NCBI RefSeq assembly: GCF_963676685.1
Contig: NC_092355.1
Coordinates: 15,624,001-15,688,000 of the forward strand
Direction: 5' to 3'
Source of the DNA: Mytilus edulis
Lineage: Eukaryota
DNA length: 64,000 nt
Shown here one piece after another: positions 16,304-61,964 of this stretch; position 1 is the first letter of the stretch; each line of letters opens with the position of its first letter. The notes below the pieces were generated by a model that saw nothing but the letters and a program-made list of their open reading frames with translations, searched no databases and had not been told where the DNA came from. The translations under genes were made by a program, and so were the position numbers.

Positions 16304-17129
16304 ACTAGAGGTTACAATGAGCCTGTGTCGCTCACCTGATATTTTTATTTTATTGATGCATGAAATGATGTTATCGTTATACTTTTGATTTAGTTTCAGA
16401 GATATAAGTCAAAAACTACATTTCCCCCTATGTTCTATTTCTAGTCATGTCTGTCATGTTGGTTAGCAGCATGGTGATGAGGCACATTTTTTTTTAAACT
16501 AAATACACTTATGCTTATTGTGACCAAGTTTGGTTAAATTTATATGAGTTGTTTCAGATGACTTTTGTAAAAGATACAAAAATTTGCGAAAAATTGTTAA
16601 ATTTTGTCTTTAAAGGGCAGTAACTCCTTATGGGATCCATTGAACATTTTAATCATGTTCGACTTATTGTAGATCTTACTTCACTGAACAATATTGCTAT
16701 TAACAGTTTATCGTTGTCTATAGTAAAATTCAAGATAATTACCTAAAACTGCAAAATTTCCTTAAAATTACCAATTCAGGTGCAGAAACCCAACAAAGGG
16801 TTGTCCAGTTTGTCTGAAAATTTCAAGGCAAATAGATCTGGAACTGATTAACTATTTTACCTCATGTCAGATTAGCTCTAAATACTTTGGTTTCAGAGAT
16901 ATAAGCCAAAATATTCATTTACCCGTATTGCTTTTTCAGCCATGTTAGTTGGCCGGGTCATCGGACACATTTTTTAAACTAGATATCACAATAATTATTG
17001 TGGCCAAGTTTGGCTCAGTAGTTTAAGAGAAGGAATTTTCTGTAAAGGTAAACGACGACGGACAACGGACGACGAACGCCAAGCGATGAGAAAATCTCAC
17101 TTCCCACTTTGCGCCAGGTGAGCTAAAAA
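16304..17129. mobile_element. Helentron-associated (HINE-like) non-autonomous element
   Basis: 5' GCTCACCTG matches 3' CAGGTGAGC, GACG-type microsatellite near the 3' end, terminal hairpin followed by an A-run. Confidence 0.55.
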
Positions 17130-17526
17130 CGAAACTTGTACTCTGATACGTCATTGTTTAATACATATAGTTTAATGAACAAGATATATTTACAATTATT
17201 CAGTGTATCCTTTTATCTTGTTTTAATTGTTTCAATGGGCTAAAAATTCATCGTGTTCATCTAAATGCTGATCAACAATGCAATTGGATGAAAAGAATTA
17301 TACGTATCTATACATGCTATAGGAAAGTAGAATGCTTCTGCTACATAAATATTGGCTGTTTTTGACAATACAATACACATATATCGGGTACAAGCATCCT
17401 TAAGTCATGCTAAGTTACTGAAATCCTCACAGTTTTACATTTAAGTTAAATTTTAGACGGTTTCCGTCTTCAATGAAAGTCATTCTTAACATTGAAATGT
17501 AAGTTGCATTTGATGATAATACATAT

Positions 17527-18666
17527 TGTTACGGTTTAGGGTATAAGCTGTAGGTTTGTACATACGACTCTATCGGGCTACTCAGTAAACACTCATTTCT
17601 ATTTTTGCGTTCGTCGTTTATTGTTAGCCAACGCGTATACAAAGACATTTGATGAACATTATGTATACTTATATATTGTTATTGTATGTAAATATTGTTA
17701 GTAAGGTATTTGGGAAAAATAGTATAGAGTTCGTCTTCATTGTTTGACCATGGGGGGTTCCCTGACTGAACGACTGTTCCCACCTTCTGTTTACCCTTAT
17801 TTCACACGTTCCTGCTTTATTACCTTGTTATTTTATTAGCGTAAGGCATGAATATTGTAACCGGGGCCCATACATGCTAAGAGTAAGCTTAGATAAGTCC
17901 CGTTTGTCCATTTCCCGACTCGACAGAATGTCAACATTCCGATCGCCGCCATTTGCATCACTATGTTTATTGACGTCAGTGACCTAATGACCTGAGATCA
18001 GCATCCAATCAGCATAACGTTATTTGCCCACCATCTCCATAGGGGCACGAGAAGTTGGTGGGACAGAGATATAAAAGCAAGTGCACAACAGTCTTCAGCT
18101 AGACTGCGGCCCGCTACCAGGGCAGTCACTCCTGATACCAAGGAAACTTACCAAAGGCAAGCAAACCAAAAGTGCCGCAGTCGATGCAATACATGTACCT
18201 TTGCATCCCCGTTGGATAAATGGACCAAACCATAATTGACCTAGATGTTTTACTACGTGTACTACGATGTTGACAAACGATTAACGTACCGAAAAGGGGG
18301 GTCTCTGTATATTTTATCAAGTGTTCTGTTGGGTTTTCATGTAATTTATACTTGGAATAGTATTGAATGTTTTGTATATAATAAATTGTGAAGCTTTATT
18401 AATCTTGTTATCTGTTGTACATGTAGTTAGTAAGTCAATGTAAATGAGTTTCTGTGCTACCATATTTAGACCAATGCCTTAACTGTTTTGCCTGCTACGC
18501 TACCATAGTCTTGACCATTTTACCAGCTACGCTACCAGTATAACTTAGTTTGTAACTCGACACCAGAGTTGACAGATCTATACTAGAATTTACCAAGAAT
18601 AAAGTAACCAGTGTGTTAACCTCATAATAATACCTTTTACTTTTGGGACACCCCCGTCCCGTAACA
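17527..18666 (+). repeat. 5' LTR (1140 bp)
   Basis: TG...CA ends with an 8-bp inverted repeat; differs from the 3' LTR at about 5 positions seen by eye (17661, 18259, 18263, 18411, 18602). Confidence 0.95.
17945..18077 (+). promoter_or_regulatory. LTR U3 Pol II promoter
   Basis: GCCGCCATTT (YY1-like), ATTTGCAT octamer 17951, TGACGTCA CRE 17971, TGACCTaaTGACCT DR2 17980-17993, CCAATCAG 18005, TATAAAAG 18070; AATAAA at 18380; all duplicated in the 3' LTR. Confidence 0.7.
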
Positions 18667-18669
18667 TTT

Positions 18670-18687
18670 TGTGTCCGGCGGTGGGAT
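18670..18687 (+). other. Degenerate primer-binding site (tRNA-Leu-like)
   Basis: TGTGTCCGGCGGTGGGAT 3 nt after the LTR; the last 10 nt match the tRNA-Leu-type PBS TGGTGGCAGCGGTGGGAT but the canonical TGG is absent. Confidence 0.55.
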
Positions 18688-18790
18688 ACGTATAAAACCA
18701 CACCTTGAGAGTAGAGACTTGAACCCGTATATATAATTTATGAAATTTTTTAACTTACTTGTACAACAGAGTTTCATTTAAACAATTAAC

Positions 18791-19855
18791 ATGAGTAGTT
18801 GCGTTAGTCCTTCAGAAAATTATGTTCCTGACAGTCGTGCATCTACCCCAGTTAGTGATAAATCTTGTGCATCAAGGCCAGATGATGTAGTAAATACCAT
18901 GAATAAGAAGGTTGAGGTCTATACAAATATAGTAAACCAGTTCAGTAGAAATTTGAATACCCTAGGGGACCGTTTTAATAGATTTGAAACACAGTTAAAG
19001 ATAAATAATGAAAAAGTAGAAAAGCTTGAAAATCTTTCTGAATTACTTTTAAGTAGTATATCGAAAATAGAAGACCAGGTGGCAAATTTGTGTATGAGTG
19101 TTTTAGATAAAATACCAAAAGTTACCAATGATTGTTCATGTGAGAATACAAGTTCTAATGTTACCAATAAAGTATGCGGGAGTAGTGAATCAAACCAGTT
19201 GTCTAACCGAGAACCAGTATGCATCGAGACTATAGGGTATACAAAACCATCAAAATATGATGGGACCACTAACTGGCTTGAGTACAAGTTACATTTTGAG
19301 GCTGTTGCAAAATTAAATAATTGGTCTGAAGATATAAAAGTTTTAAAGCTTATTACATGTATGAATGGTGCTGCTTTGTCGACTTTAGCTGATATTGAGA
19401 TAGATAATATCCCAACATATTGTTATTTAGTTAAACTGTTAACCAAAAGGTTTGCTCCTGAAAACCTGACAGATGTATATATGTCACAAATTGATGCTTG
19501 TGTTAGAAAACCAGGTCAACCATTGCAGGAACTGGCGGATAATATAAAAAGGCTAGTCAGAATGGCTTACCCATCCGCGAGTCTCGATACCAGAGACTAT
19601 TTAACTTATAGGGCATTTAGAAAAGCACTAAATGATCATGATTTAGAATTGGCTATTGTACAAAGCAATGTAGAAACCATTGACGGAGCGTTGTACTGTG
19701 CTCTGAAATATGAAACGTTTAGGGATAGAGAGAAAAAGTTTAGACAGCAACCAAAATCTGAAACGTCTGTTTGTATGAATGCCAAGGCAAACCAGACCTG
19801 TTATTTCTGTAATGAGAAAGGACACGCCATTAGAGACTGTCCTAAGAGAACTTAA
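18791..19855 (+). CDS. gag: Retrotransposon Gag (N-terminal coiled coil, Ty3/Gypsy capsid, CCHC zinc knuckle)
   Basis: Intact 354-aa ORF; heptad-rich LNTLGDRFNRFETQLKINNEKVEKLENLSELL; capsid motif KPSKYDGTTNWLEYKLHFEAVAKLNNW; C-terminal CYFCNEKGHAIRDC (CX2CX4HX4C), then stop. Confidence 0.92.
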   Translation: MSSCVSPSENYVPDSRASTPVSDKSCASRPDDVVNTMNKKVEVYTNIVNQFSRNLNTLGDRFNRFETQLKINNEKVEKLENLSELLLSSISKIEDQVANLCMSVLDKIPKVTNDCSCENTSSNVTNKVCGSSESNQLSNREPVCIETIGYTKPSKYDGTTNWLEYKLHFEAVAKLNNWSEDIKVLKLITCMNGAALSTLADIEIDNIPTYCYLVKLLTKRFAPENLTDVYMSQIDACVRKPGQPLQELADNIKRLVRMAYPSASLDTRDYLTYRAFRKALNDHDLELAIVQSNVETIDGALYCALKYETFRDREKKFRQQPKSETSVCMNAKANQTCYFCNEKGHAIRDCPKRT

Positions 19856-20237
19856 TCGTTAATGTTTGTTACATTCAGATACCATGAATGTTAGCATGTG
19901 AACATGTTTTTTTTATATATATATTTGTTATGAAAATGAGATTTTTACCAGTAATAGTCATTTTCGATACCTGAAAGTGAGTTTTGTACCAGTAATACTT
20001 GTAGTAATTTTTGATACCGGAAAATGAGTTTGTTAAATATTTCAGTATTTTTATAAAGAGTTGCACCTCGTTAAATATTTATTGTTCTATCAGTTGAAAC
20101 TGCAGAGGTGGTGTTATGTACGCATTCATGTTACCAATGAATAACCTTTTTATAGACCATTGTATGATAAACAGAGTTGTATGGTTGGACCTTTTTTGAC
20201 TACAGTATTATTTACTAGTATACAGAAATATTCTGAT

Positions 20238-20806
20238 TGACTCATCGACGTGTCTGTGTGACGGATGGAAGGTCTGTGGAATATTTTTATTTGGTATTGT
20301 CCCGGTGACTCACCGACGTGTCTATGTGACGGGTGGAATGTCTGTGGAGTATCATACAGTATTTGATTTACCTATATTAGTTTACCAGTGTTCACGGTGA
20401 CTCATCGACGTGTCTGTGTGACGGATGGAAGGTCTGTGGAATATTTTTATTTAGTATTGTCCTGGTGACTCACCGACGTGTCTGTGTGACGGGTGGAATG
20501 TCATACAGTATTTGTTTTACCTATATTAGTTTACCAGTGTTCCCGGTGACTCATCGACGTGTCTGTGTGACGGATGGAAGGTCTGTGGAAAATTATTTTT
20601 ATTTGGTATTGTCCCGGGGACTCACCGACGTGTCTAAGTGACGGGTGGAATGTCTGTGGAATACCAAGCAGTATTTATGTTACCAATTTTAGTTTGCCAG
20701 TGTTCCAGGTGACTCATCGACGTGTCTGTGTGACGGATGGAAGTTCTGTGGAATATTTTCATATGGTATTGTTGTGATTCGCTGACGTGTCTTTGTGACG
20801 GGTGAC
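20238..20806 (+). repeat. Internal array of 8 alternating A/B repeats (about 4 x 150-160-bp dimers) in the retroelement 3' region
   Basis: Core TGACTCA(T/C)CGACGTGTCTGTGTGACGG(A/G)TGGAA at 20238, 20306, 20398, 20466, 20547, 20618, 20710, 20775. Confidence 0.95.
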
Positions 20807-21196
20807 ATGCACAATTTAAAGTACCATTTATTTAGCCACTTATTTATTTGAACCAACTGTACCATGAAGTTTAAACCAAGTAGAGCAAGCACTTTACATT
20901 GAAACAAGATATATACTAATATCCAGAGTTGTGAGTATCTCAATTCCAGAGATACAATATTATACCATGTTTAACACCATATTATTGACACCAGAATTAT
21001 AGTACAAATGTTTGATCTCAGTACCAGATATCGAAACTATAGAACTAATGATGATTATTGTGATTAATTTACCATGTCGACAGAGCCAGCAACCACACAA
21101 AGAAGATCCGGTTTTATTTTTTTAGTAGGTTGATAAGTAGGTATTTATTAGGTAGGTGTTCTATTATTTTTAAGTTCGAGGACGAACTCTTATCCT

Positions 21197-21209
21197 GGGT
21201 TGGGGGTAG
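21197..21209 (+). other. Polypurine tract
   Basis: GGGTTGGGGGTAG immediately 5' of the 3' LTR, preceded by TTCGAGGACGAA. Confidence 0.75.
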
Positions 21210-22349
21210 TGTTACGGTTTAGGGTATAAGCTGTAGGTTTGTACATACGACTCTATCGGGCTACTCAGTAAACACTCATTTCTATTTTTGCGTTCGTCGT
21301 TTATTGTTAGCCAACGCGTATACAAAGACATTTGATGAACATTGTGTATACTTATATATTGTTATTGTATGTAAATATTGTTAGTAAGGTATTTGGGAAA
21401 AATAGTATAGAGTTCGTCTTCATTGTTTGACCATGGGGGGTTCCCTGACTGAACGACTGTTCCCACCTTCTGTTTACCCTTATTTCACACGTTCCTGCTT
21501 TATTACCTTGTTATTTTATTAGCGTAAGGCATGAATATTGTAACCGGGGCCCATACATGCTAAGAGTAAGCTTAGATAAGTCCCGTTTGTCCATTTCCCG
21601 ACTCGACAGAATGTCAACATTCCGATCGCCGCCATTTGCATCACTATGTTTATTGACGTCAGTGACCTAATGACCTGAGATCAGCATCCAATCAGCATAA
21701 CGTTATTTGCCCACCATCTCCATAGGGGCACGAGAAGTTGGTGGGACAGAGATATAAAAGCAAGTGCACAACAGTCTTCAGCTAGACTGCGGCCCGCTAC
21801 CAGGGCAGTCACTCCTGATACCAAGGAAACTTACCAAAGGCAAGCAAACCAAAAGTGCCGCAGTCGATGCAATACATGTACCTTTGCATCCCCGTTGGAT
21901 AAATGGACCAAACCATAATTGACCTAGATGTTTTACTACGTTTACGACGATGTTGACAAACGATTAACGTACCGAAAAGGGGGGTCTCTGTATATTTTAT
22001 CAAGTGTTCTGTTGGGTTTTCATGTAATTTATACTTGGAATAGTATTGAATGTTTTGTATATAATAAATTGTGAAGCTTTATTAATCTTGTTAACTGTTG
22101 TACATGTAGTTAGTAAGTCAATGTAAATGAGTTTCTGTGCTACCATATTTAGACCAATGCCTTAACTGTTTTGCCTGCTACGCTACCATAGTCTTGACCA
22201 TTTTACCAGCTACGCTACCAGTATAACTTAGTTTGTAACTCGACACCAGAGTTGACAGATCTATACTAGAATTTACCAAGAATATAGTAACCAGTGTGTT
22301 AACCTCATAATAATACCTTTTACTTTTGGGACACCCCCGTCCCGTAACA
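21210..22349 (+). repeat. 3' LTR (1140 bp)
   Basis: Near-identical copy of 17527-18666. Confidence 0.95.
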
Positions 22350-23032
22350 ATATCATATGTAAAGGTTTAAGATGAACACGGATGCGGCCATTTTCATTTT
22401 TGTCAAAAAACATCTGAAAAGTGGCATTTTTTAATAGATTTTCATATATAAGCTTGAATTGGAGCGTTTTTAATGACTACATCGGTTAAAAAAATTCACA
22501 TTAACTAATTAAATCAACTGAAATAGACACTTTAAAGTTGAAAAAAGTGTCCAAAATCTTTCGTTAGATGAACCTGAAATTTAAGACCAAAATCGTCCCT
22601 TACCGGACATACTCCTTTATTTCGAATCCAGATTGACATATGTTTCGAAGACGTGAAATAAATAGCCAATACTATATACGTCTGAGAAGAGTTCATTCCT
22701 GTTAGAATGAAAGTAAGAAGATATCAAAGGTACGAAAAGAAATCTAAGAATTAGAAATACATAAATAACAAAGAGAAGGCAAATTCATTAAACGTCACAA
22801 CTAGGCTTGAAATAAGTAATAGAAATCCCATTCTCAAATATCCAAATACATTCATATATATAGCATGATATTTGTCTATTTTGATTACAACATGTATATG
22901 GATACATATATCAGCCAAAGTTATTTGTTTATTCCATCCACATTTGCAATTTCATGTTATAACCAGTTTTTTAGAATGTATTTGTAACACTCATAAACGT
23001 GTCCATCCCCTCAAAATCAGGACGCTAAACAT

Positions 23033-24214
23033 ATAAAAGAGGGACGAAAGATACCAAAGGGACAGTCAAACTCATAAATCTAAAACAAACTGACAACGCC
23101 ATGGCTAAAAATGAAAAAGACAAACAGAAAAACAATAGTACACATGACACAACATAGAAAACTAAAGAATAAACAACACGAACCCCACCAAAAACCAGGG
23201 GTGATCTCAGGTGCTCCGGAAGGGTAAGCAGATCCTGCTCCACATGTGGCACCCGTCGAGTTGCTTATGTGATTACAAATGCGGTAAATAGTCTAATTCG
23301 GTCACATTCATGAAAGGGAAGGGGATTGTAGTTACGACGTAAGGAACATATCCGATATCATTTGTGAAACGGTTATTCCATAACGGTCAACCAACTCGTG
23401 ATGGCGTCCGTAAAATTTACGAAGGGATGATTTCAACTTCACCATTTGGAACTCTTGATTTAATAGCTTCCTTGTGAGCAGTAACCCTCTATCAAGAAAA
23501 TCATGATAGGAAATGCAAGCACGGGAATATCGTATCAATTGGGAGATATATACCCCGTATGCAGGTGCTGCTGGAATGTTGCTACTTAGAAATGGAAAGT
23601 TCACAATTAGAAAGCTAAAATCATCTCTTTTGTCGTAAAGTTTTGTTTTCAACCGACCCTCATTGTCAATTTCTAGATGTAAGTCAAGATATGAAGCCGA
23701 CTTAACTGTATCTGTAGTATCCTTTATCTCCAATTCGATGGGATAGATGCGTTCCACATAGTCACCAAATTTTGAATTGTTTAGTGAAAGAACGTCATCT
23801 CTATAGCGGAAAGTAGAGTTTAAGGATATTGCTAACTTCTTATCTTTCTTCCTAAGAAGTTCCTGCATGAAGTCAGCCTCATAATAATAAAGAAACAAGT
23901 CGGCAAGTAGAGGGGCACAGTTTGTTCCCATTTGGGATGCCGACAGTCTGTTGAAAAACCCGTCCTCCGAACGTTACAAATATGTTGTCAATCAAGAAAT
24001 CAAGCATCTTGATAACATCGGTTTCAGAGAATATTTTGTTTGAATCAGAATGATTCTTTACAAAGTATGATTTATCCCTCCCTTAGACAAGATACTTGTA
24101 TCTACGTTGGCCATTCTTTTTTATGAAGCAAAGTAATACCAACTCTTTCAATTTGTCTTTTAGTTTGGAATATGGAATACTTGTGTACAGAGTAGAAAAG
24201 TCAAATGTTTTTAT
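23033..24214 (-). mobile_element. 5'-truncated Penelope-like retroelement (RT pseudogene plus 3' repeat)
   Basis: KTFDFSTLYT..QQTVGIP/MGTNCAPLLADLFL..RYRDD..KLYDKRDDF..SNIPAAPAYGVYISQLIRY; frameshift near 23932, internal stop, RT catalytic motif reads YRDD; the 3' repeat recurs at ~34487. Confidence 0.85.
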
Positions 24215-42039: not shown

Positions 42040-43375
42040 TTTGCTTTCTAATTTTGAAAACAGTATTTCTCTGGCTTCGTTGTGAAGAGCGCACTGTAAA
42101 AAATAGTGTATACTATCCTCAACAGGGTGGCCACAGCTGCATGCGGGACTGGGTTTAATATTAACACGATGTAAATCTGAATTTAAAGAACTGCACATAT
42201 TTCTCAAACGTGTATGAATGATATTAATTTTCTATCCCCACAACTAAAATAGGAAGGTGGCTGTATCAATTTGGACTTCATCTTTCGTTTAAAAATATTT
42301 ATGTTTTGGACGTACGTATGTCGGGGGGAAGGCTATTCCATTCAAAAGTAGTGGATGGGAAAAAGGATTTTCTAGTTATGTCTAGTCTATAACCGGGTAC
42401 TACATAATTATTACTGTTTCGCAAATCGTAGTTAGATACTTGACCAACAAGCGGGGGCATTAAATCACAGAGATAATCAGGGGCAGTCTCATTATGTATA
42501 GAATAGAACATATTGAGCATTCTGGATTTTCTTCTGTTCACAAGCAATTGCCAGCCAGTTTCAAAATATATAGCTTCCCGACTAGCAAACACGGGCAACC
42601 CAGTTACTAACCTCCCTGCTTCTAACTGAACATGTTCTAAATTGTCGGCTTCTTGTTGAGTACAACCATCCCATAACTCACATGCATATTCCATAACGGG
42701 TCTTATAAAAGTTAAATATATACGAGCAAGATAATTTCTATTCAATACATATTTCAATTTTTTAAGAACATTTAATCTCGTGCTTGCACACTTTAAAATA
42801 TTTTCTATATGTGTATGAAATTTATCATTGGAATCAAAAGTAATCCCTAAGTGTTTATGACAGGAGACAAATTCTACTAATTGGTTTTGAAATTCTATTT
42901 CAATATCATCTGGGGAAGTATGGCAGGAGAATATCATAGCCTTTGTCTTATTAGGGTTAAAGTTAATAAGCCAATCTTTAGACCATACTGAAATTTGTTC
43001 TAAATCGCTGTTTAAGACATCCTCTATAGTGTAAGGGTTATTGCTGGAATAAGAAAGAGATGTATCATCAGCAAACAATCGAGTTAGACTTGTCAAATTA
43101 TCAGCTATGTCATTTACATAAATAAGAAATAGTAGGGGACCTAATACAGAGCCTTGCGGAACTCATGCATTAGTATTATCAAAAGGCGAATAGGTATTTG
43201 AAACGAAAACGCTTTGTTTTCTATTTGAAATATAACTTTCAAACCATTTATACAGATTTCCATTAATACCATACGCTTTTAGTTTTATTAAGAGGCCACT
43301 ATGCCATACCCTATCAAAAGCTTTCGAGGTATCACATAATATAAGAGATGTTATACAGCGATCATCATGTGACAT
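42040..43375 (-). pseudogene. 5'-truncated CR1/L2-type LINE ORF2 (RT plus C-terminal Cys/His motif)
   Basis: CDTSKAFDRVWH, VPQGSVLGPLLFLIYVND, LFADD, KHLGI, C-terminal CSCG..EDSIHYFLQC; in-frame TGA at ~43163 and frameshifts near 42230-42300. Confidence 0.9.
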
Positions 43376-45559: not shown

Positions 45560-46925
45560 GCTACATTTAAGAAAAATGAGTACAGATTTTACCTATATCT
45601 ACCGTCGCCATATTGGGATAATCGTAATTGCAGTTACTATCATCTCTTTAATACCAGTGGTATAGGCCGTGTATGAAATAAACAGTACAGATTCAAACAA
45701 TGTGCTATCAAACGTAATCCTTGAAAGAGGGGTGAAAGATACCAAAGGGACATTCAAACTTTAAATAAATCGGAATTAAACTGACAATGACATTGCTTAC
45801 AAAAAGACAAATAGACAATAAAGACAATAATAATTGATCGAGAATTTTGTTCCCTGTGTGATAAGAGTATTGACGACATGGTCGAGATGATAAAAACATC
45901 AGGAAATGAGATTGTAGTTGCAAAAGCAGACGCAGTGGCGGGTCCAAAGGGGTGGGGTCTGAGAGTTGCTACAAACCCTTTTTTTGGACGATCGATGCAT
46001 TTGAAAGGGGACATATATTTGACCCCGCCCCCTTTATCTTGCTTTATTTTATTTATATTTATACTAGTCATTGGGGGCCCTTTGATTGCTCTGTGTTGTA
46101 TGTCGTACTGTTGCCTATTATGGTTTACTTTTACAAATTTTGATTTGGATGGAGAGTTTTATCGTTGCTACTCATTCCATGTCTTCGTATATCTATTAAC
46201 CCAGCCATATTCTGTATGTGCCTGTCCAAAGTCATGAGCCTGTATTTTAGTTGTTATCGTTTGTTCATGTTTCTTCTCATATTATATATTTTGTAAATTG
46301 TATTGTTATGTATATCTAGGACTTTAGTTTTGTCGTTTGAATTATTTCACACTTTTCATGGCCTTCTATAGACAACTATATACATTATTGGGGTTTCTTA
46401 TTATTGAAGGCCGTACGCTTGCCTATAATTGCTTACAACCACTTTATATTTGAACTCCCGTGGATAGGTGCCTCATTAGCAATCATACCATTGTTTTTAT
46501 TTATAGTATAAACCTGAATTTTAAACTCGTGTTTTCCTAAACTTGCATGAAATATTTGTCACTGGGCGTTTAAAGTTAGCAATCAAACAATCAATCATTT
46601 TAAACTTGTATAAAATAAGAGGAAAACCATTTGATTTTGTTTTGCTGGGGTGTGGAGCATGTTAATTTTGTTGCCTGTTAAGAGCTGAAAAATAGGCATG
46701 ATCAGCGAAAGATTAAAATAGATATTAAATCCGCCAATTTCGTCCTGTCCCCTTCCCTTCCCCGATAAAAACTGACCGCCACAAAATAGCACAATAGTGT
46801 TTAAAGTGGTGTTAAACACCAATTAATACCATCTTTTGAATATCAAATAGTCATACATAACTATGGAAAGCCACAGTGAACCCCTCGGTTATTATTATTT
46901 TGCCTTTAGAAATACTTAAAATACA

Positions 46926-48012
46926 ATTTCCTATCGTTAATTATCCGTTTTTAGATGGTGACGTTCCCTTGTCACCATCTTACGGTGTTTATATATCTCA
47001 ACTTGTACGATTCGCTCGTGTATGTAACAATGTTTTAGATTTTAACGAGAGAAATTTATGTATTACTGAAAAATTATTACACCAGGGTTTTCGATATCAC
47101 AAACTAATCAAAACATTTACTAAATTTTATCATCGGTATAAAGACATCATTCGTAAATATAGCTCAACATGCAGACTTCTAATACGTTCAGGTATTTCAC
47201 ATCCAATTTTTTATGGAAATATTCTTTATAAAGCACAAAGTTGTCAGTATTCACCTCAGAAACTTACAAAACCTTTGAATAGACTTATTAAGAAGGGATA
47301 TAATTACGATACTGTTGTCAAGTCATATTTTGGCGTTAATATTGAGTCACTGATAAGGTCTTTGCATCGGAACTAAACACATTTATTCTAAAAACAGTTG
47401 TTGGCATGACACGGGTTATGTTCTTCTCATATATGTTATGATGGTATGATACTAAACCCCTAACGGGAAGGATTGTGCCTGATGTTCATATGATGAAATC
47501 ATAATCTTTCAGTCAGTTTAATTGAAGTCTGGAGCTGGCATGTCAGTTAACTGCTAGTAGTCTGTTGTTATTTATGTATTATTGTCATTTTGTTTATTTT
47601 CTTTGGTTACATCTTCTGACATCAGACTCGGACTTCTCTTGAACTGAATGTTAATGTGCGTATTGTTATGCGTTTACTTTTCTACATTGGTTAGAGGTAT
47701 AGGGGGAGGGTTGAGATCTCACAAACATGTTTAACCCCGCCGCATTTTTGCGCCTGTCCTAAGTCAGGAGACTCTGGCCTTTGTTAGTCTTGTATTATTT
47801 TAATTTTAGTTTCTTGTGTACAATTTGGAAATTAGTATGGCGTTCATTATCACTGGACTAGTATATATTTGTTTAGGGGCCAGCTGAAGGACGCCTCCGG
47901 GTGCGGGAATTTCTCGCTACATTGAAGACCTGTTGGTGACCCTCTGCTGTTGTTTTTTATTTGGTCGGGTTGTTGTCTCTTTGACACATTCCCCATTTCC
48001 ATTCTCAATTTT
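46926..48012 (+). mobile_element. 3' fragment of a Penelope-like element (RT C-terminus plus 3' UTR)
   Basis: FPIVNYPFLDGDVPLSPSYGVYISQLVRFARVC..KLLHQGFRYHKL is homologous to the 23332-23931 protein; stop at 47376; the tail is shared with 34589-34772. Confidence 0.8.
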
Positions 48013-49400: not shown

Positions 49401-52400
49401 AGCGCAAATGACCATAGTATTTGCATGGAGCGAAAATGGCCATGGTGTTTGCATGGAGCGCAACTGGCCATGGTGTTTGCATGGAGCGCAAATTAAATGT
49501 GTATAGTGTTTGCATGGAGCGCAAAAGTCCATAGTGTTTGATTGGGGCGCAACTTTTCATAGCGTTTGCATGGAGAGCAAAAATCCAATTGTGTTTGATT
49601 GGGGTGAAAATTTTCACAGCGTTTAAATATCGAGCAAACGTCCAAAGTGTTTGCAAGGAGCGCAAATGTTCATAGCGTTTGCATGGAGAGCAAATGCCCA
49701 TAGTGTTTGCATGGAGCGTCCATGTCAATAATGTTTGCATGGAAAGTAAATGTCCATAGTGTTTGCATGGAGCGCAAATGTCCATAATGTTTGCATGGAG
49801 CGAAAATGTCCATAGTGTTTGTATGGAGAGCAAAACTCCATAGTGTTTGATTGAGGCGCAAATTTTCATAGCGTTTAAATGTCGAGCAAACGTTCAAAGT
49901 GTTTGCATGGAGAGCAAATGTTAATAGCGTTTGCATGGAGAGCAAATGCCCATAGTGTTTGCATGGAGGGTTCATGTCAATAGTGTTTGCATTGAGAGAA
50001 AACGTCGATAGTGTTTGCATGGAGAGTAATGTACATAGTGTTTGCATGGAGAGTAATGTACATAGTGTTTGCATGGAGAGTAATGTACATAGTGTTTGCA
50101 TGGAGCAAAAATAGCCATAGTGTTTGCATGGAGCGCAAATGTCCATAGTGTTTGCATGAAGCGCAAATGTCCATAGTGTTTACATGGAGCTCAAATGTCC
50201 ATGGTGTTTACATGGAGCTCAAATGTCCATGGTGTTTATACCGAGAGCAAATGTCCGAAGTGTAAATGAACATAGTGTTTGCATGGAGCGCAAATGCCCA
50301 TTGTGTTTACATGGAGAGCAAATGTCCATGTTGTTTACATAGAGCGCAAATGCCCATTGTGTTTACATGGAGAGCAAATGTCCATGGTGTTTACATAGAG
50401 CGCAAATGCCCATTGTGTTTACATGGAGAGCAAATGTCTATCGTCTTTACATGGAGAGCAAATGCCCATAGTGTTTAAACGGAGAGCAAATATCCATGGT
50501 GTTTAAACGGAGAGCAAATGCCCATAGTGTTTAAACGGAGAGCAAATGTCCATGGTGTTTACATAGAGCGCAAATGTCCATAGTGTTTATACCGAGAGCA
50601 AATGTCCGTAGTGTAAATGAACATAGTGTTTGCATGGAGCGCAAATGCCCATTGTGTTTACATGGAGAGCAAATGTCCATGTTGTTTACATGGAGAGCAA
50701 ATGTCTATCGTCTTTACATGGAGAGCAAATGCCCATAGTGTTTAAACGGAGAGCAAATGTCCATGGTGTTTAAACGGAGAGCAAATGCCCATAGTGTTTA
50801 AACGGAGAGCAAATGTCCATGGTGTTTACATAGAGCGCAAATGTCCATAGTGTTTATACCGAGAGCAAATGTCCGTAGTGTAAATGAACATAGTGTTTGC
50901 ATGGAGCGCAAATGCCCATTGTGTTTACATGGAGAGCAAATGTCCATGTTGTTTACATGGAGAGCAAATGTCTATCGTCTTTACATGGAGAGCAAATGTA
51001 CATAGTGTTTACATGGTGAGCAAATGTCCATGGTGTTTGCATAGAACGCAAATGTCCATGGTGTTTACACGAAGAGCGAATGTCAATAGTGTTTACATTG
51101 AGAGCAAATGTCCATGCTGTTTACATAGAGAGCAAATGTCCATGGTGTTTACATAGAGAACATATGTTTATGGTGTTTACATGGAGAGCAAATGTCCATG
51201 ATGTTTACATGGAGAGCAAATGTCCATGGTGTTTACATACAGAGCAAATGTCCATGGGGGTTACATGTAGATACATGGAGCGCAAATGTCCATGGTGTTT
51301 ACATGGATAGCAAATGTTCTTTAGTTTTTACATGGTGCGCAAATGTACATGGTGTTTACATGTAGATACATGGAGCGCAAATGTCCATGGTGTTTACATG
51401 GAGAGCAAATTGTTTTTAGTTTTTACATGGAGCGCAAATGTCCATAGTGTTTACATGGAGAGCAAATGTCTGTAGTGTTTACATGGAGCACAAATGTCCA
51501 TGGTGTTTACATGAAGAGCAAATGTCTATAGTGTGTACACGGAGAGCAAATGTCCATCGTGTTTACATGGAGAGCAAATGTCCATAGTGTTTCCATGGAG
51601 AGTAATGTACATAGTGTTTACATGGATCGCAAATGTCCATAGTGTTTAGATGGAGAGTAATGTACATACTGTTTGCATGGAGCGCAAATGTCCATAATGT
51701 TTACACGGAGAGCAAATGTCCATAGTGTTTACACGGAGAGCAAATGTTCATGGTGTTAACATGGAGCGCAAATGTCCATGGTGTTTACGAGAGCAAATGT
51801 CCATGGTGTTTACATGGAGCGCAAATGTCCATGGTGTTTACATGGAGAGCAAATGTCCATGGTGTTTACATGGAGCGCAAGTGTCTATGGTGTTTACATG
51901 GAGATCAAATGTCCATGGTGTTTACATAGAGAGCAAATGTCCATGTTGTTTACATGGAGAGCAAATGTCTATCGTCTTTACATGGAGAGCAAATGTCCAT
52001 AGTGTTTAAACGGAGAGCAAATGTCCATTGTGTTTACATGGAGAGCAAATGTCCATGGTGTTTACATAGAGCGCAAATGTCCATTGTGTTTACATGGAGA
52101 GCAAATGTCCATAGTGTTTACATGGAGAGCAAATGTACATAGTGTTAACATGGAGAGCAAATGTCCATAGTGTTTACATGGAGAGCAAATGTCCATAGTG
52201 TTTAAACGGAGAGCAAATGTCCATTGTGTTTACATGGAGAGCAAATGTCCATGGTGTTTACATAGAGCGCAAATGTCCATAGTGTTTACATGGAGAGCAA
52301 ATGTCCATAGTGTTTACATGGAGAGCAAATGTCCATAGTGTTTACATGGAGAGCAAATGTCCATAGTGTTTAAACGGAGAGCAAATGTCCATTGTGTTTA

Positions 52401-55400
52401 CATGGAGAGCAAATGTCCATGGTGTTTACATAGAGCGCAAATGTCCATAGTGTTTACATGGAGAGCAAATGTACATAGTGTTTACATGGAGAGCAAATGT
52501 CCATAGTGTTTACATGGAGAGAAAATGTCCATAGTGTTTAAACGGAGAGCAAATGTCCATTGTGTTTACATGGAGAGCAAATGTCCATGGTGTTTACATA
52601 GAGCGCAAATGTCCATAGTGTTTACATGGAGAGCAAATGTCCATAGTGTTTACATGGAGAGCAAATGTACATAGTGTTTACATGGTGAGCAAATGTCCAT
52701 GGTGTTTACATAGAACGCAAATGTCCATGGTGTTTACACGAAGAGCGAATGTCAATAGTGTTTACATGGAGAGCAAATGTCCATGCTGTTTACATAGAGA
52801 GCAAATGTCCATGGTGTTAACATGGAGCGCAAATGTCCATGGTGTTTACGAGAGCAAATGTCCATGGTGTTTACATGGAGCGCAAATGTCCATGGTGTTT
52901 ACATGGAGAGCAAATGTCCATGGTGTTTACATGGAGCGCAAGTGTCTATGGTGTTTACATGGAGATCAAATGTCCATGGTGTTTACATAGAGAGCAAATG
53001 TCCATGTTGTTTACATGGAGAGCAAATGTCTATCGTCTTTACATGGAGAGCAAATGTCCATAGTGTTTAAACGGAGAGCAAATGTCCATTGTGTTTACAT
53101 GGAGAGCAAATGTCCATGGTGTTTACATAGAGCGCAAATGTCCATTGTGTTTACATGGAGAGCAAATGTCCATAGTGTTTACATGGAGAGCAAATGTACA
53201 TAGTGTTAACATGGAGAGCAAATGTCCATAGTGTTTACATGGAGAGCAAATGTCCATAGTGTTTAAACGGAGAGCAAATGTCCATTGTGTTTACATGGAG
53301 AGCAAATGTCCATGGTGTTTACATAGAGCGCAAATGTCCATAGTGTTTACATGGAGAGCAAATGTCCATAGTGTTTACATGGAGAGCAAATGTCCATAGT
53401 GTTTACATGGAGAGCAAATGTCCATAGTGTTTAAACGGAGAGCAAATGTCCATTGTGTTTACATGGAGAGCAAATGTCCATGGTGTTTACATAGAGCGCA
53501 AATGTCCATAGTGTTTACATGGAGAGCAAATGTACATAGTGTTTACATGGAGAGCAAATGTCCATAGTGTTTACATGGAGAGAAAATGTCCATAGTGTTT
53601 AAACGGAGAGCAAATGTCCATTGTGTTTACATGGAGAGCAAATGTCCATGGTGTTTACATAGAGCGCAAATGTCCATAGTGTTTACATGGAGAGCAAATG
53701 TCCATAGTGTTTACATGGAGAGCAAATGTACATAGTGTTTACATGGTGAGCAAATGTCCATGGTGTTTACATAGAACGCAAATGTCCATGGTGTTTACAC
53801 GAAGAGCGAATGTCAATAGTGTTTACATGGAGAGCAAATGTCCATGCTGTTTACATAGAGAGCAAATGTCCATGGTGTTTACATAGAGAACATATGTTTA
53901 TGGTGTTTATGTAACAAAAAATTTGTTCCGGCATGACAATTGTTCCGCTGGAACAAATTTCATAGGAAATATGTTCCATCGGAACTTATGTCACAGAAAA
54001 TATGATTCAGTACTATAAAATTTGTTCCGGAACTAATTTTTTAACTAAGTGTGAAATAAGTTCCGGAACAAAATTCACAGCACCATGAGTTTTGTTCCAA
54101 TATTGAAATTTAAAAAAAAGTGAAATAAGTTTGTGTGATATTAGTTTTGAACGAAAGTATTTTATAGAAATCAATGAAAATGTTCTGCTCGAATCTATTT
54201 AACAGAAAATATGTACTGTGCTTGCATGGAGTATATTTGCAATTGAAGGCATGACTGTAGGGATGAAGATAAGAAATAAAAGCGATGATAATGTATCATA
54301 ATTTGTATCTATGTTTTATCCTTTATGTGGTATTCCACCTCCTTGTTTCCTGTTGATCTGTCATGGGTGTTCTAATCATACATGTACTTAGCTATGGTCA
54401 TTGCACAGTTTTAAAAGAGTGTGTCTTTTGTTTCTTTGTATTCTAATATAATTGATCAGTCACTTTGTCCTTTTAAAAAAAGTACAAATGTTCATCTTTA
54501 ACTATTATAATACTTTTTTTCGGAATGACTTTTATTATTATTTCTTATTCTACTCTTTCTGGTTCATAAGTGTCATTTTTAATATTATTAATTGAGTATG
54601 TTATTAAACTTTTGCATTGCTCCACATGATCCAAATTGGATGTTTAAACTTTTTATTTATTACCTTTTTAATATCAATATAATACACGTTTTTGTAATGA
54701 CTTTCAACTCACTGATGACAAGTGCTCAGTATACATAAGATAACTTGTTTAACCAGTGGAACATATTTCATAGACACGGAACTTATTTCACCAGGTGAGG
54801 AACAAATCTCACAAATCCAGAACATATTTCACCAGGTAAGGAACAAATCTCACAAACATGGAACTAATTTCACTAGGTAGGGAACAAATTTCACCATCCC
54901 AGAACTTATTTCACCAGGTAAAGTGTGGAACTTTTTTCATATAAATGGAACAAATTATATAGAAATTGTCTGTGAAAAAAGTTCTCCCAGAACATATTTC
55001 CTGTGAAATTAGTTCCACTGGAACTTTTTTCACAGGAACAAATTTTGGCTCACATTTACATGGAGAGCCAATGTCCATGATGTTTACATGGAGAGCAAAT
55101 GTCCATGGTGTTTACATAGAGAGCAAATGTCCATGGGGGTTACATGTAGATACATGGAGTGCAAATGTCCATGGTGTTTACATGGAGAGCAAATTTTCTT
55201 TAGTTTTTACATGGTGTTTACATGTAGATACATGGAGCGCAAATGTCCATGGTGTTTACATGGAGAGCAAATTTTCCTTAGTTTTTACATGGAGCGCAAA
55301 TGTCCATAGTGTTTACATGGAGAGCAAATGTCTGTTGTGTTTACATGGAGCACAAATGTCCATGGTGTTTACATGAAGAACAAATGTCTATAGTGTGAAC

Positions 55401-56027
55401 ACGGAGAACAAATGGCCATCGTGTTTACATGGAGAGCAATTGTCCATAGTGTTTCCATGGAGGGTAATGTACATAGTGTTTACATGGATCGCAAATGTCC
55501 ATAGTGTTTAGATGGAGAGTAATGTACATACTGTTTGCATGAAGAGCAAATGTCCATGGTGTTTACATGGAGAGCAAATGTCCATAGTGTTTACACGGAG
55601 AGCAAATGTCTATGGTGTTAAAATGGAGCGCAAATGTCCATGGTGTCTACGAGAGCAAATGTCCATGGTGTTTACATGGAGCGCAAGTGTCTATGGTGTT
55701 TACATGGAGATCAAATGTCCATGGTGTTTACATAGAGAGCAAATGTCCATGTTGTTTACATGAAGAGCAAATGTCCATAGTGTTTAAACGGAGAGCAAAT
55801 GTCCATGGTGTTTATATGGAGAGCAAATGTCCATGGTGTTTACATGAAGAGCAAATGTCCATGGTGTTTACATGGAGAGCAAATGTCCATAGTGTTTACA
55901 TGGAGAGCAAATGTCCATGGTGTTTTGATGGATAGCGAAAGTCTATAGTGTTTAGATGGAGAGCAAATGTCCATAGTGTTTACATGGAGAGCAAATGTCC
56001 AGAGTGTTTACATGGAGCACATATGCC
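49401..56027. repeat. 28-bp satellite with higher-order repeats
   Basis: Unit AATGTCCATRGTGTTTACATGGAGAGCA; near-exact 1061-bp tandem duplication (identical ORF-track entries at 51954/53015 and 51772/52833). Confidence 0.97.
53910..55054. mobile_element. Non-autonomous TIR element with TGT...ACA ends and 4-bp TSD, inserted in the satellite
   Basis: TGTAACAAAAAATTTGTTCC / GGAACAAATTTTGGCTCACA; TSD TTTA; many GGAAC/GTTCC subterminal motifs; empty paralogous site at ~51171-51190. Confidence 0.9.
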
Positions 56028-56499
56028 ATTCTGTATTGGCTCACACTGGGCAGCAAGCTATGAAGTGCCCCAAAAATGTCTTGTTAAAAACCATTCAAAC
56101 AGGAAAACAACGGTCTAATCCATTTACAACAACAATGTGTCCCCAGTACACGGATACCCCACTTGCACTATCATTGTTTTGCCGCCAACATATATATGTT
56201 TTAAAATGCAATGTACGGATGACGCGCTGTACGTGTCATGTTAGCTTTTGACAACCATTATTTTTTTCGACACTAAAATATTACGCTCCTTAATACATGT
56301 AATAAGACTAGTTCCAAGTTTAACTTTGTGATAAGATATATATACATAAATAGATTTAGGAAGATGTGGTGTGAGTGCCAATGAAACAACTCTCCATCCA
56401 AATAACAATGCATGTCTGTATCTGTGATTATACATGAATACAGTCTTACTTTGTTATAGACAATGAAGCAAAACTCACTTGTAATCATCATGAATCAAT

Positions 56500-58387
56500 G
56501 GTATCTTTTTGTGATTCAATTAGGAACACAGTTCTCTTTGTGATTTAAACAAAAGCTCAGTTCTCTGTGGGATTCAAGCAGGAAATTAATTTAAAAAAAA
56601 AAGGGAACTTATATTTCTCTGTGCGACTCAAACAGGAATACAATTTTCTTTGTGATCCAAACATGAACGTAGTTCACTTTGTGATTCAAACAGGAACTTA
56701 GTTCTCTTTGTGATTCCATTAGGAACCTAATTTTCTTTGTGATAAAAAGGAACTTATAGTTCTATGTGCGACTCAAACAGGAATCTAGTTCTCTTTGTGA
56801 TTCAATTAGGAACCTAGTTCTCTTTGAGATTTAAAAAAGACTGTAGTTTTCTGTGTGATTCAAACAGGAACCTAATCCTCTTTGTGATTCAAACAGGAAC
56901 ATAGTTCTCTTTTGAATTCGATTAGGAAACTTGTTCTCTTTGTGATTTAAACAGGAACCAAATTATCTTTGTGATTCAAAGCGAACATAGCTATCTCTAA
57001 GATTCATGCAGAAACGTAGCAATCTTTGTGATTCAAACAAGAACCTAGTTATCTTTGTGATTTAAAAGAAACTTATAGTTCTGTGTGATTGAAACAGGAA
57101 CCTAGTTCTCTTTGTGATTCAATTAGGAACCTAGCTATCTTTGAGATTCAAACAAGAACTTCGTTCTTTTTTTTTTATTAAAACAGTTACCTAGTTCTCT
57201 CTGTGATTCAATTAGGAAAATAATTCTCTTTGTGATTTAAAAAGTAACTTATAGTTTTTTTGTGTGATTCAAACAGGGACCTAGTCCTCTTTTAGATACA
57301 ATAAGGAACCTAATTCTCTTTGTGATTCAAACAGGGACCTAGTCCTCTTTGTGATACAATAAGGAACCTAATTCTCTTTGTGATTCAAACATGAACCTAG
57401 TTCTCTTTGTGATTCAATTAGGAACCTAGCTATATTTGAGATTCAAACAAGAACTTCGTTCTCTTTTTTATTAAAACAGTTACCTAGTTCTCTCTGTGAT
57501 TCAATTAGGAAAATAATTCTCTTTGTGATTTAAAAAGTAACTTATAGTTTTTTGTGTGATTCAAACAGGAACCTAGTCCTCTTTTTGATACAATAAGGAA
57601 CCTAATTATCTTTGTGATTCAAACAGGAACCTAGTACTCTTTTTGATTCAATTAGGAACCAGTTACCTAGTTCATTTTGTGATTTAAACCGTAACTTAGT
57701 TCTCTTTGTGATTTAAACAGGAACCTTATTCTCTATTTATTCAAACAGGAACAAGTTATCTCTGCGATTCATGCAGGAACGTACTTCTCTTTCTGATTCA
57801 AACAGGAACCTAGTTCTATGTGTAATTCAATTAGGAACCTAGTTCTCTTTGTGATTTGAAAAGAAACTTATAGTTCTGTGTGATTGAAACGGGAACCTAG
57901 TTCACTTTGTGATTCAATTAAGAACCTAGTTCTCTTTTTGAATCAATTAGGAACCTAGTTCTCTTTGTGATTTAAACAGGAACCTAGTTCTCTTTGTGAT
58001 TTAAACATAAACTTAGTTCTCCGTATGATTCCAACAGGAACCTATTTCTTTATGTGATTCAAACAGAAACAGTTCTCTTTGTGATGCAAACAGGAACCTA
58101 ATTATCTTTGTGATTCAAACAGGAACCTAGTTCTCTATGTGATTCAAACCAGAACCTAGTTCTATGTGCGTTTTTTACATTAACCTGTGATTAAATAGGA
58201 ACTTAGTCTCTTTTTGTGATTCGATATGAAACTAGTATTATTTTGTGATTAAATAGGAACCTAGTCTCTTTTTGTGATTAGATATGAAACTAGTATTATT
58301 TTGTGATTAAATAGGAACCTGTTTTATTTTGTGATTAGATATGAAGTCCCTTTTTGTGATTAAATAGGAACCTAGTGTCTTTCTGAT
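56500..58387. repeat. ~29-bp satellite
   Basis: Unit GTGATTCAAACAGGAACCTAGTTCTCTTT, diverged copies. Confidence 0.9.
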
Positions 58388-58390
58388 TAA

Positions 58391-58659
58391 GGGAACTACA
58401 TTTGATTTTTATGGGGGGGGGGGGGGATGGGGGGTGGGGGGCTAGGATGAAAAAATTTGTCCTGCCTTTTTTTTTAGCTGTAATCTCTGTCCTGCCTTTT
58501 TATTTTTCACTCTGTTCGGTCCTGCCTTTTTTTTTTAGTTTATCTTGACTTCTTTTTACCTAAATTGTCGTCCTGACTTTTTTTTACTCAAAACTCCTGT
58601 CCTGCCTATTTTTTCAAATTTCATCCTAGCTCCCCCATAAAAAACAAATGGTAGCTCCC
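58391..58659. mobile_element. PIF/Harbinger-like MITE (269 bp)
   Basis: TIR GGGAACTACATTTG / CAAATGGTAGCTCCC; 3-bp TSD TAA; removing it restores a satellite unit; internal GTCCTGCCTTTT repeats. Confidence 0.8.
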
Positions 58660-59291
58660 TAAATAGAGACCTAGTCTCGTTGTTATTGATGGGCATCAAC
58701 AGACTCCCTTTGTGACAAAGGCAGGGTAATTTTCTGTCTACTCTTGTGATAAAGATCAGATCTAACAGTTGGAGTATGTGATGATGACAAGATTTTACAA
58801 ACTTTGGAATTCAAAATCAGCAGGCAAACTTCGCAATTAAGACAGAAACCAACTCATATTTCATGATTATCAAGTCCCCCTTTGATTCAAGCGTGGTCGT
58901 GTACTTGACTGTAGACAAGAACCCAAAAGCTTATCTGTGAGATTACTTTGTTGAAGGGTTGTGAAACTTAAGAGATCTCGATCATGGCGTGCTGGTCATT
59001 TTTAAACTTTCACCAAGCTCCTATATTTTCATAACAGCAAAAACTGTGCAAGTCAGGAACAACCAGTCTCATTTTGTGATTAAGACACGCACTGTGTGAT
59101 CATCATGAATCAATAGTCTCCGTTTTATAAAAACAGAATCCCAGTCATTTAGTGTGATAAGGAATCTAACTGTTTAATAACATTAACGGTACCAATTTTC
59201 CTGCACCATATGCGCATATGTTTAAGTTATCAAAACAGAAACCTAGTCATTTTGTGTATAGGAACCTAGTCTTTCTTAGCTATGCGATTAA

Positions 59292-59689
59292 GAGGCTGTT
59301 CAAGTAAATATAAGGCAAATCCTATGATATGGGTGGCACAACATAATTTTTTTCCCACTGAATTTTTGGTTCCAATGCAATATTTATATCATACAAAGGA
59401 TATATATGTCAAAGATATTTTTGAATCAACAGTGGATGGCTCAGAAAATGATTTTAAAGTTCACTAACAACGCAACAAAATTTTGAACAAAATGAAGAGT
59501 TATCTCCCCTTTTCAATGAATTTTCAGTGCTTTCTATGTATTTATTTTCTCTTTATTTGTTGCAGTTAATAAAAAAACTAAATTTAACTTTGAGAAAGAA
59601 TGAATTTGTGATATGAAATAGATGAATAAATTCTGAAAACAAAATATGTCATGTGCCATCCACTGCCTGGTTTTTCCATGGACACCCTC
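59292..59689. mobile_element. Kolobok-like MITE
   Basis: GAGGCTGTTCA / TGGACACCCTC imperfect TIR, TTAA on both sides. Confidence 0.6.
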
Positions 59690-59969
59690 TTAAACAGTAG
59701 TCTAGCATCTCTAAATGTGCTTGAGGCTGGAATATGGTTTCACTTTATGATAAAACAGGAATATGAAATCACTTTTTGATTGACACGATATCTTGTCTGT
59801 CTTAGTAATTTTAACAGGAACATATGTCTGTTTCAGTAGTAAACATGAACAAAGTCTCTATTTGAAATTAAACATAAACAAAGTCTCTCGTGAAATAGAT
59901 AACAAGACTTCCTCTGTGACTTAATGAGAAACCAAGTTTATTTTTGTGATTAGTCTTATTTTGTAACAA

Positions 59970-60370
59970 AGATAGGAATCAAGTCTTATATTGTGATCAA
60001 GACAGGAATCTAGTCGTATATTGTGATCAAGACTGGAATCTATATTTTGATCAAGACAGGAATTTAGTCGTATAGTGTGATCAAGACAGGAATCTAGTCT
60101 TATACTGTGATCAAGACAGGAATCTAGTCATATATTTTGATCAAGACAGTCATCTAGTCTTATATTGTGATCAAGACAAGAATCTAGTCTTATATTGTGA
60201 TCAAGATAGGAATCTAGTCTTATATTGTGATCAAGACAGGAATCTAGGATTGAATTGTGATCAAGACAGGAATCAAGGATTGTATTGTGATCGAGACAGG
60301 GGCCAGGGATGATATTGAGATCAATGCAGGAATCAAGTCTTATATTGAGATCAACATGATTAAGACAGGA
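59970..60370. repeat. 30-bp satellite
   Basis: Unit TGTGATCAAGACAGGAATCTAGTCTTATAT. Confidence 0.92.
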
Positions 60371-60840
60371 CAAAAGTCATCATTTGTGGGGGGAAATAAG
60401 TTTATCTTTGACATTACTACAGGAAACAAGTCTCAATTGTGTGGGGATGGTAACAAACAGTTTCACTTTGTTATATATCAGGAACCTTCAGTATTGATCT
60501 GTGACTAAAGCAGATACAAAGCCTCAACTTGTGATCAAGACAGAAACACATAGTCTCACTCTGTGAATAAGACAGGATTAAAGTCTGTAACAAGCCAGGA
60601 CTATGACAGTTGATATCCATTTACTTTAATAATGTGTAACGAGCTTTTGATTTTGCCATTTGATCAAGGACTTTCCATTTTGAATGTTCCTCTTCCTTAG
60701 GAATCTAATCTTAATTTTGTGATTAAAAACGGAATTTCGTCATATATTGTGAATTAGATAGAAAGCAACAGTCTTAATTTGTGGTTCAGATAGAAACGTA
60801 TTCTTTATTTAAGAATTAAGACAGGAAACTATGTCTAAAT

Positions 60841-61872: not shown

Positions 61873-61964
61873 AACTGTTTCACTACCGCTATGCGATTCA
61901 GCAAAAACAAAAAAGTCTTCCATATTATTCAGTGATTAAATCAGGAACTAGCTGCAGTCTCATT

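Follow-up and report, generated by a model that had tools for sequence, protein, structure and literature searches.

A gag-only, Gypsy-type LTR retroelement family of Mytilus mussels that probably borrows its Pol

The TR-GAG elements of plants consist, as PMC4350172 describes them, of long terminal repeats (LTRs), a primer-binding site (PBS), a polypurine tract (PPT), a target-site duplication (TSD), and a single gag open reading frame (ORF) with zinc knuckle. They are described there as having no protease, reverse transcriptase (RT), RNase H, or integrase, and as occurring in several copies. Some of their Gags are Gypsy-like, and the PBS of TR-GAG1 is that of tRNA-Leu (Chaparro et al. 2015, PMC4350172); transposition of TR-GAG is reported in PMC8704663 as demonstrated. 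Considered here is a mussel element of positions 17527-22349 in a 64,000-nucleotide stretch of the Mytilus edulis genome (contig NC_092355.1 of assembly GCF_963676685.1, positions 15,624,001 to 15,688,000), that whole stretch being what is meant below by the window. The element is probably a young member of a Gypsy-type Mytilus family that is multi-copy and pol-less, supplies its own Gag shell, packages its own RNA, and borrows Pol from a related, complete element.

Gag-only elements had been taken, in a sequence-only reading of this DNA, to be mainly a plant phenomenon, which is too strong a statement. The BHIKHARI elements of zebrafish, Bik-1 and Bik-2, are young, multi-copy LTR families that carry gag only, with pol reported from no reference copy and the helper described as unidentified (PMC12067270). 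These are relatives of endogenous lokiretroviruses, with a 617-aa Gag and a developmental role, as that paper presents them (PMC12067270). Wheat RLG_Sabrina_SA and RLG_WHAM, with RLG_Wilma as helper, are presented in PMC9744471 as semi-autonomous Gypsy lineages of long standing in which gag is retained, as having long coexisted with that distant helper, and as sharing little with it beyond the PBS and short LTR motifs. As to molluscs, named Gypsy clades include the C-clade and MolGy (PMC6238403), while biv-TRIM (PMC6934838) and Helenus (PMC10886601) are described as short, non-coding, non-autonomous LTR elements present in Mytilus, animal Helenus having 4-bp TSDs and being tied to Gypsy helpers by the PBS (PMC10886601). 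A gag-only Gypsy family of a mollusc was not found in a literature search which did not extend to supplements, Repbase, or Dfam.

The element and its insertion site have the following parts, in window coordinates, with L001 and L002 being complete relatives that are introduced below:

17338..17522, no strand: high-copy host repeat, split by the insertion and resuming at 22354, as indicated by contig depth and by loose ends at 17525
17523..17526, + strand: 5' TSD of 4 bp (ATAT), its register fixed by contigs in which the host repeat is unbroken
17527..18666, + strand: 5' LTR of 1,140 bp, TG...CA, with a TATA-like box at 18070 and polyadenylation-signal hexamers at 18380 and 18598 (presumed functions)
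18669..18687, + strand: PBS, matching the PBS regions of L001 and L002
18791..19855, + strand: gag, 354 aa, uninterrupted, with neither slippery heptamer nor C-terminal tail
18887..19111, + strand: predicted long helix, likely a coiled coil, aa 33-107 (AlphaFold2 model; weak Pfam hits)
19238..19744, + strand: predicted two-lobed capsid domain, aa 150-318
19799..19840, + strand: single CCHC zinc knuckle, aa 337-350 (PF00098, E 1e-4)
19856..21209, + strand: non-coding internal 3' region, standing in place of the relatives' pol and ORF3
20238..20830, + strand: tandem array of eight units, with a core of ~45 bp at a spacing of 65-92 bp
21117..21209, + strand: conserved pre-PPT block plus PPT (the latter about 21197-21209), 77% to L001
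21210..22349, + strand: 3' LTR of 1,140 bp
22350..22353, + strand: 3' TSD of 4 bp (ATAT)

In total the element is 4,823 bp long. Its two LTRs differ at five positions over 1,140 bp, i.e., 99.56% identity, and their TG...CA ends carry a 7-bp terminal inverted repeat. The sequence-only reading had given an LTR identity of about 99.6%, a perfect ATAT TSD, and a PPT, all as found here, with the PPT being G-rich and imperfect; the PBS and the eight-unit array it had missed. That PBS presumably pairs with tRNA-Leu.

The same reading had placed the insertion within a repeat that continues on both sides, and DNA reads agree. Read evidence, both DNA and RNA, is from 4 of 24 sequencing runs, as placed on 16900-21260 at 85% likeness, that is, three DNA runs, each labelled as a different organism, plus one RNA run (X22). 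In the three DNA runs, 41, 24, and 72 contigs depart from the 5' flank at 17525 into 3'-flank-like sequence, and do so in register with the 4-bp duplication; the host repeat therefore runs on across the insertion site. Summed contig depth over the host-repeat bin (17338-17522) is 1e5-1.5e6. The insertion is recent, i.e., this is a young copy.

The gag ORF had been read as an uninterrupted 354 aa that stop four residues after the zinc knuckle, and so it is: 18791-19855 is stop-free, Pfam returns a zf-CCHC profile match at aa 336-352 (E 1e-4), and the protein ends four residues past the last knuckle Cys. The helix of aa 33-107 has a predicted local distance difference test score (pLDDT) of 85-96 over most of its length in the AlphaFold2 model, and has weak coiled-coil Pfam matches. 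Gag is predicted to be a virus-like shell protein. Structural neighbors of the model include Arc, PNMA2, and PEG10, a likeness which, as modeled, is one of shared fold only.

The closest complete relatives, L001 and L002, are metagenome contigs, these being 2 of 166 candidate stretches. L001 runs in order from an LTR end through PBS, gag, overlapping pol, a zinc-finger ORF3, a conserved block, and PPT to an LTR, with its pol supplying protease, RT, RNase H, and integrase (PR-RT-RH-IN) in Gypsy order; L002 has gag and a PR-RT-RH-IN pol as does L001. L002 gag, at 841-2283, is interrupted early on by an in-frame stop, whereas the L002 pol frame stays open until about where the contig ends. The likeness of the mussel element to these relatives is found in Gag as well as in cis signals. 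That is, its Gag core is 58% identical to the nearest of them (about 55-58% overall), its PBS region matches L001 at 28 of 30 columns and L002 at 86% over 44 columns, its pre-PPT block together with 21 nt of LTR is 77% like L001 over 118 columns (E 1e-15), and a stretch of U3 (the unique 3' part of the LTR) at 17679-17750 is 77% like the L001 LTR over 78 columns. A capsid tree was built from 35 rows, i.e., 33 stored proteins hand-picked from best hits plus L001 and L002, and was rooted at its midpoint; in it the eight family rows come together as a single branch (100/100, stem length 0.58), nested in a 100/100 group that also takes in L001, L002, and P0033, a Gag of M. edulis. By sequence kinship of Gag and cis signals with PR-RT-RH-IN elements, this may be placed as a non-autonomous Gypsy (Ty3/Metaviridae) derivative, and Gypsy-type nearest complete relatives would argue against a lokiretrovirus ancestry for the mussel Gag.

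What follows gag is 1,354 bp (19856-21209) in which the longest stop-free frame is 93 codons, and in which, as had been claimed, a pol remnant is not seen. Searched against the element by tblastn, pol of L001 and of L002 gave a best E of only 0.27-0.58, and matches to the element of five other pol-bearing models were confined to gag. Frameshift-tolerant alignment, too, yielded scores within those of shuffled sequence, with 13 of 40 shuffles scoring as high for L001 pol and 18 of 60 for the Mytilus pol model P0198. An ORF3 remnant was sought before the PPT and could not be demonstrated, and Rfam returned nothing for 19856-21209 at E<=1. The array at 20238-20830 is a 160-bp dimer repeated 3.6 times, and it holds 6 of the window's 12 copies of a heptamer that we take to be the AP-1 consensus. 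It is on this array that the few X22 reads over the element pile up (depth 3-11). The array might, speculatively, be an enhancer or a packaging repeat.

Absent as well from the window's gag is the slippery heptamer that is seen in the gag-pol overlap of both L001 and L002. Among related Gags outside of the family, 106 of 148 representative matches have a C-terminal knuckle, and these have a median tail of 31.5 aa past it; just 2 of the 106 have a tail of <=6 residues, and 55 of the 106 end in a GN/EN motif, that is, in residues which the slippery heptamer encodes. Tail and heptamer both being missing, it follows that the family lost the part of Gag which leads into pol.

That this is a multi-copy family, rather than a one-off deletion, is seen from records of its Gag, which are 96-99% identical in M. 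edulis and M. galloprovincialis, with relatives at 70-85% in M. coruscus. They come from a minimum of 7, 6, and 4 contigs, distinct in length, of M. edulis, M. galloprovincialis, and M. coruscus, respectively (counts which may take in uncollapsed haplotypes or several assemblies), with the full 354-aa ORF on four of the M. edulis contigs. Eighteen of 25 family records extend to the knuckle, and all 18 end 4-5 residues past it; the other seven are truncated or spliced models, and not one of the 25 continues past the knuckle stop. Among 3,465 longer protein candidates no Gag-Pol fusion was found, the one thing to emerge being a chimeric host model; this was a word-limited search and a weak test.

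The DNA runs provide a second view of the family. In these the ratio of post-gag to gag median bin depth is 1.43, 1.23, and 1.6 with boundary bins excluded, ratios that the tandem array inflates, and single-contig depths, post-gag versus gag, are 201 versus 185, 45 and 35.5 versus 36, and 750 versus 823-953. The principal contigs of runs X3 (19348-20333) and X10 (19633-19883) read through the gag stop and on into non-coding sequence, and another from X3 (20947-21221) joins the PPT to the LTR. Gag, array, pre-PPT block, and LTR start follow one another in that same order in an M. galloprovincialis gene model, P0010. Pieces of family gag are spliced, indeed, into three host gene models, P0009, P0010, and P0013 (PPIB, a chitin-binding repeat protein, and APC4); such pieces imply insertions in or beside genes, and the models themselves are probably annotation artifacts.

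These data bear on whether there exists instead a low-copy, autonomous parent with near-identical gag and LTRs, the pol-less copies being its recent deletion derivatives and their gag being intact and conserved only through youth and past selection in the parent. That is unlikely given that the same C-terminal stop is present in three species, including within the 80-85% M. coruscus branch, that no record has the slippery-site tail, that post-gag depth matches gag depth in all three DNA runs, and that no pol remnant is found over 1,354 bp. In favor of such a parent are the many LTR-like contigs that are 85-92% alike, some of which continue for 1-3 kb unlike the window, and an LTR depth 4-12 times that of gag; an excess of LTR depth is expected, though, because each copy has two LTRs and because solo and older LTRs are present as well. 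The protein searches, moreover, were word-limited, and PMC12067270 keeps the same option open for Bik-1. The sequence-only reading had named two findings as able to refute it, pol homology after gag and pol in all other family members, and neither that homology nor any sign that most copies carry pol was encountered. A replicating, non-autonomous element with its own capsid gene and with Pol borrowed, as that reading proposed, is supported at the level of the family.

Differences between M. coruscus rows and the rest are unevenly spread over Gag, at 9 of 162 columns in the capsid domain and 0 of 19 in the knuckle, versus 13 of 75 in the helix and 21 of 91 in flexible parts (capsid versus flexible, p 7e-5). 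The N-terminal part of this comparison rests on one contig, and with the N-terminus left out the flexible parts differ at 10 of 59 columns (p versus capsid 0.013). Each of three single M. coruscus models yields the capsid-versus-linker contrast separately (p 0.002-0.02). Greater conservation of the capsid domain than of the linkers suggests, at the protein-sequence level, that there is selection on Gag.

A conserved capsid domain would be seen also were Gag kept for the host, as a trans-dominant inhibitor that poisons the particles of complete elements. Ty1 p22 (PMC4599808) and DRT2 (PMC10951436) are precedents, and Gag without Pol could dilute Gag-Pol in mixed particles. As described in those papers, p22 and DRT2 are C-terminal Gag fragments, with DRT2 a single domesticated locus, whereas the mussel Gag is neither a C-terminal fragment nor a single fixed locus but instead is full length, with knuckle, and lies between intact LTRs as a young insertion of a multi-copy family. 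Only trace RNA reads are present in X22, and interference could in any case be a side effect rather than a selected function. This possibility, which the sequence-only reading had raised as a restriction factor, is very improbable.

The preferred explanation, i.e., a satellite-like family with its own Gag and with borrowed Pol, would operate as follows. A single, ancient loss, of the Gag tail, pol, ORF3, and whatever lay between them, would have founded the family. Transcription would start in the 5' LTR, with the RNA then translated into Gag only and co-packaged with helper Gag-Pol, probably in mixed particles. Priming would be at a PBS held in common with the helper, whose protease and RT would be borrowed and whose integrase would insert the element. 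Keeping gag would allow preferential packaging of the element's own RNA, which would account for the conservation of the capsid domain.

A candidate helper emerges from a search with the ORF3-like start of P0006, which led to Mytilus ORF3 proteins along with protease and integrase models in their clusters. From M. edulis to M. galloprovincialis, pol and ORF3 models agree at 97-99.6%, and this Mytilus pol-ORF3 family is therefore young. Likeness to L001 is 55-71% for pol (M. edulis model P0198) and 43% for ORF3 (P0191). As judged from these sequence likenesses, the helper is likely this young family (P0198, P0191, and kin). In each of the Mytilus pol gene models P0198, P0205, and P0212 the RT core and RNase H are left out, at differing junctions, which is likely an effect of repeat masking, though a real RT-less subfamily may be behind it.

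The relatives' third ORF follows pol at L001:5904-7211 and is represented as well by the Mytilus proteins P0189, P0191, and P0198. It is about 380-430 aa, with an N-terminal C2H2 finger, Ser/Thr/Pro-rich repeats, and a conserved C-terminal block. Its likeness is 43% from L001 to Mytilus and 97-99% among Mytilus copies, some of which are annotated as ZKSCAN. No description of this zinc-finger ORF3 turned up in a limited literature search, and it may be more unusual than the gag-only family itself.

Several considerations count against the explanation just outlined, beyond the caution attached above to contig counts. Contig depth is not copy number, and rare pol-bearing copies can drop out of contigs; a low-depth, diverged X3 contig (19711-19902) does depart from the window, for about 39 letters. 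No other full-length copy, with a TSD of its own, was encountered at the DNA level, and none of the contigs listed spans the element. The test for selection is a protein-level proxy based on five M. coruscus models, two of them from one contig, and assumes that the M. coruscus copies are pol-less, a state inferred from the shared stop alone. Pairing with the helper is inferred through L001 only, with that helper known from protein models and not from its own LTRs, PBS, or Gag; with the Gag core only about 55-58% like that of any complete relative found, co-assembly is hypothetical. The PBS of this copy, furthermore, has one mismatch in the triplet that is meant to pair with the tRNA 3' end, and the copy itself may as a consequence be immobile. 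Expression, lastly, was not demonstrated in RNA run X22 (about 6% read), in which depth over the element is just 0-11, 5 of 6,633 placed reads are >=99% alike, and reads are mostly first-mate-plus, which in most stranded libraries is antisense. X22 represents one adult or unknown tissue, and says little about germ line or embryos.

RNA is relevant also to whether mussels depend on this Gag, as zebrafish do on that of Bik-1, or employ its particles for cell-to-cell RNA, as with Arc. The layout, i.e., N-terminal coiled coil, capsid domain, and basic or nucleic-acid-binding end, is that described for Bik-1 Gag (PMC12067270), Arc, PNMA2, and PEG10 are among the structural neighbors (by shared fold only), and between 0.13 and 0.43 of the element's words occur in RNA-labelled runs, a word-level measure only. 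The X22 reads nevertheless are a trace, mostly diverged and possibly antisense, and a host role would be compatible with mobility, adding to the satellite-like explanation instead of replacing it. As a replacement for it, a host role is highly doubtful. Neither the RNA-packaging nor the restriction-factor alternative of the sequence-only reading is supported, i.e., the family is multi-copy, has kept its cis signals and full-length Gag, and has trace RNA only. Quite unlikely, too, is a combination in which a long-lived satellite lineage, its capsid about 42% diverged from complete relatives and older than the split of M. coruscus from the M. edulis group, has a Gag that also serves the mussel while the family still moves, whether as a developmental requirement (the Bik-1 case), as a source of particles that carry RNA, or in controlling the helper with the zinc-finger ORF3.

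Relative to the systems described at the outset, the mussel element resembles TR-GAG in having LTRs, PBS, and PPT as well as a gag ORF without pol. The TR-GAG requirement of at least two copies is answered by Gag records and by contigs across the gag stop, a second whole copy not having been seen as DNA. It differs from TR-GAG, as defined in PMC4350172, in its length (4,823 bp versus a <4 kb cut-off), its TSD (4 bp versus 5 bp), and its host (animal versus plant, named protein matches pointing to a Mytilus mussel), and also has 1.1-kb LTRs and an internal tandem array. It works like a TR-GAG, that is, but for reasons of length, TSD, and host is not classed as one, the likeness being one of design. 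With Bik, as that family is described, it shares being gag-only, multi-copy, and young, with a coiled coil and capsid domain, but its Gag is of 354 aa and groups with Gypsy-type elements. The wheat families are described as retaining protease, which the mussel family lacks, and DNA of the mussel helper was not seen. L001, L002, and the Mytilus pol-ORF3 family differ from it in possessing a Gag tail with slippery heptamer plus pol, with ORF3 in L001 and in the Mytilus models, while biv-TRIM and Helenus differ in having no coding sequence, the word gag being absent from both main texts.

Elsewhere in the window, stop-free frames at 23332-23973 (- strand), 46861-47373 (+ strand), and 42302-43162 (- strand) resemble, by eye, fragments of non-LTR reverse transcriptase. 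The first two are similar in kind, and for the first Pfam returned nothing significant. Satellite-like sequence makes up the last third of the window, with about 14 kb of tandem arrays at 49401-63125 in units of 28, 29, 30, and 34 bp. Upstream of the element, a second high-copy repeat (16900-17045) is abundant and one-sided in X22 (2,118 versus 88 reads), these from other copies.

For annotation, the family matters in that its gag is spliced into APC4, PPIB, and chitin-binding models and that the helper's ORF3 is labelled ZKSCAN. More broadly, a gag-only, parasitic design that is seen in plants and zebrafish is extended to a Gypsy lineage of molluscs. Why an element without pol keeps gag is a question which the TR-GAG and wheat papers raise, and of this the family is a tractable natural test, as it is young, occurs in three farmed species for which assemblies are public, and combines a conserved capsid with a cleanly lost frameshift tail and with a candidate helper.

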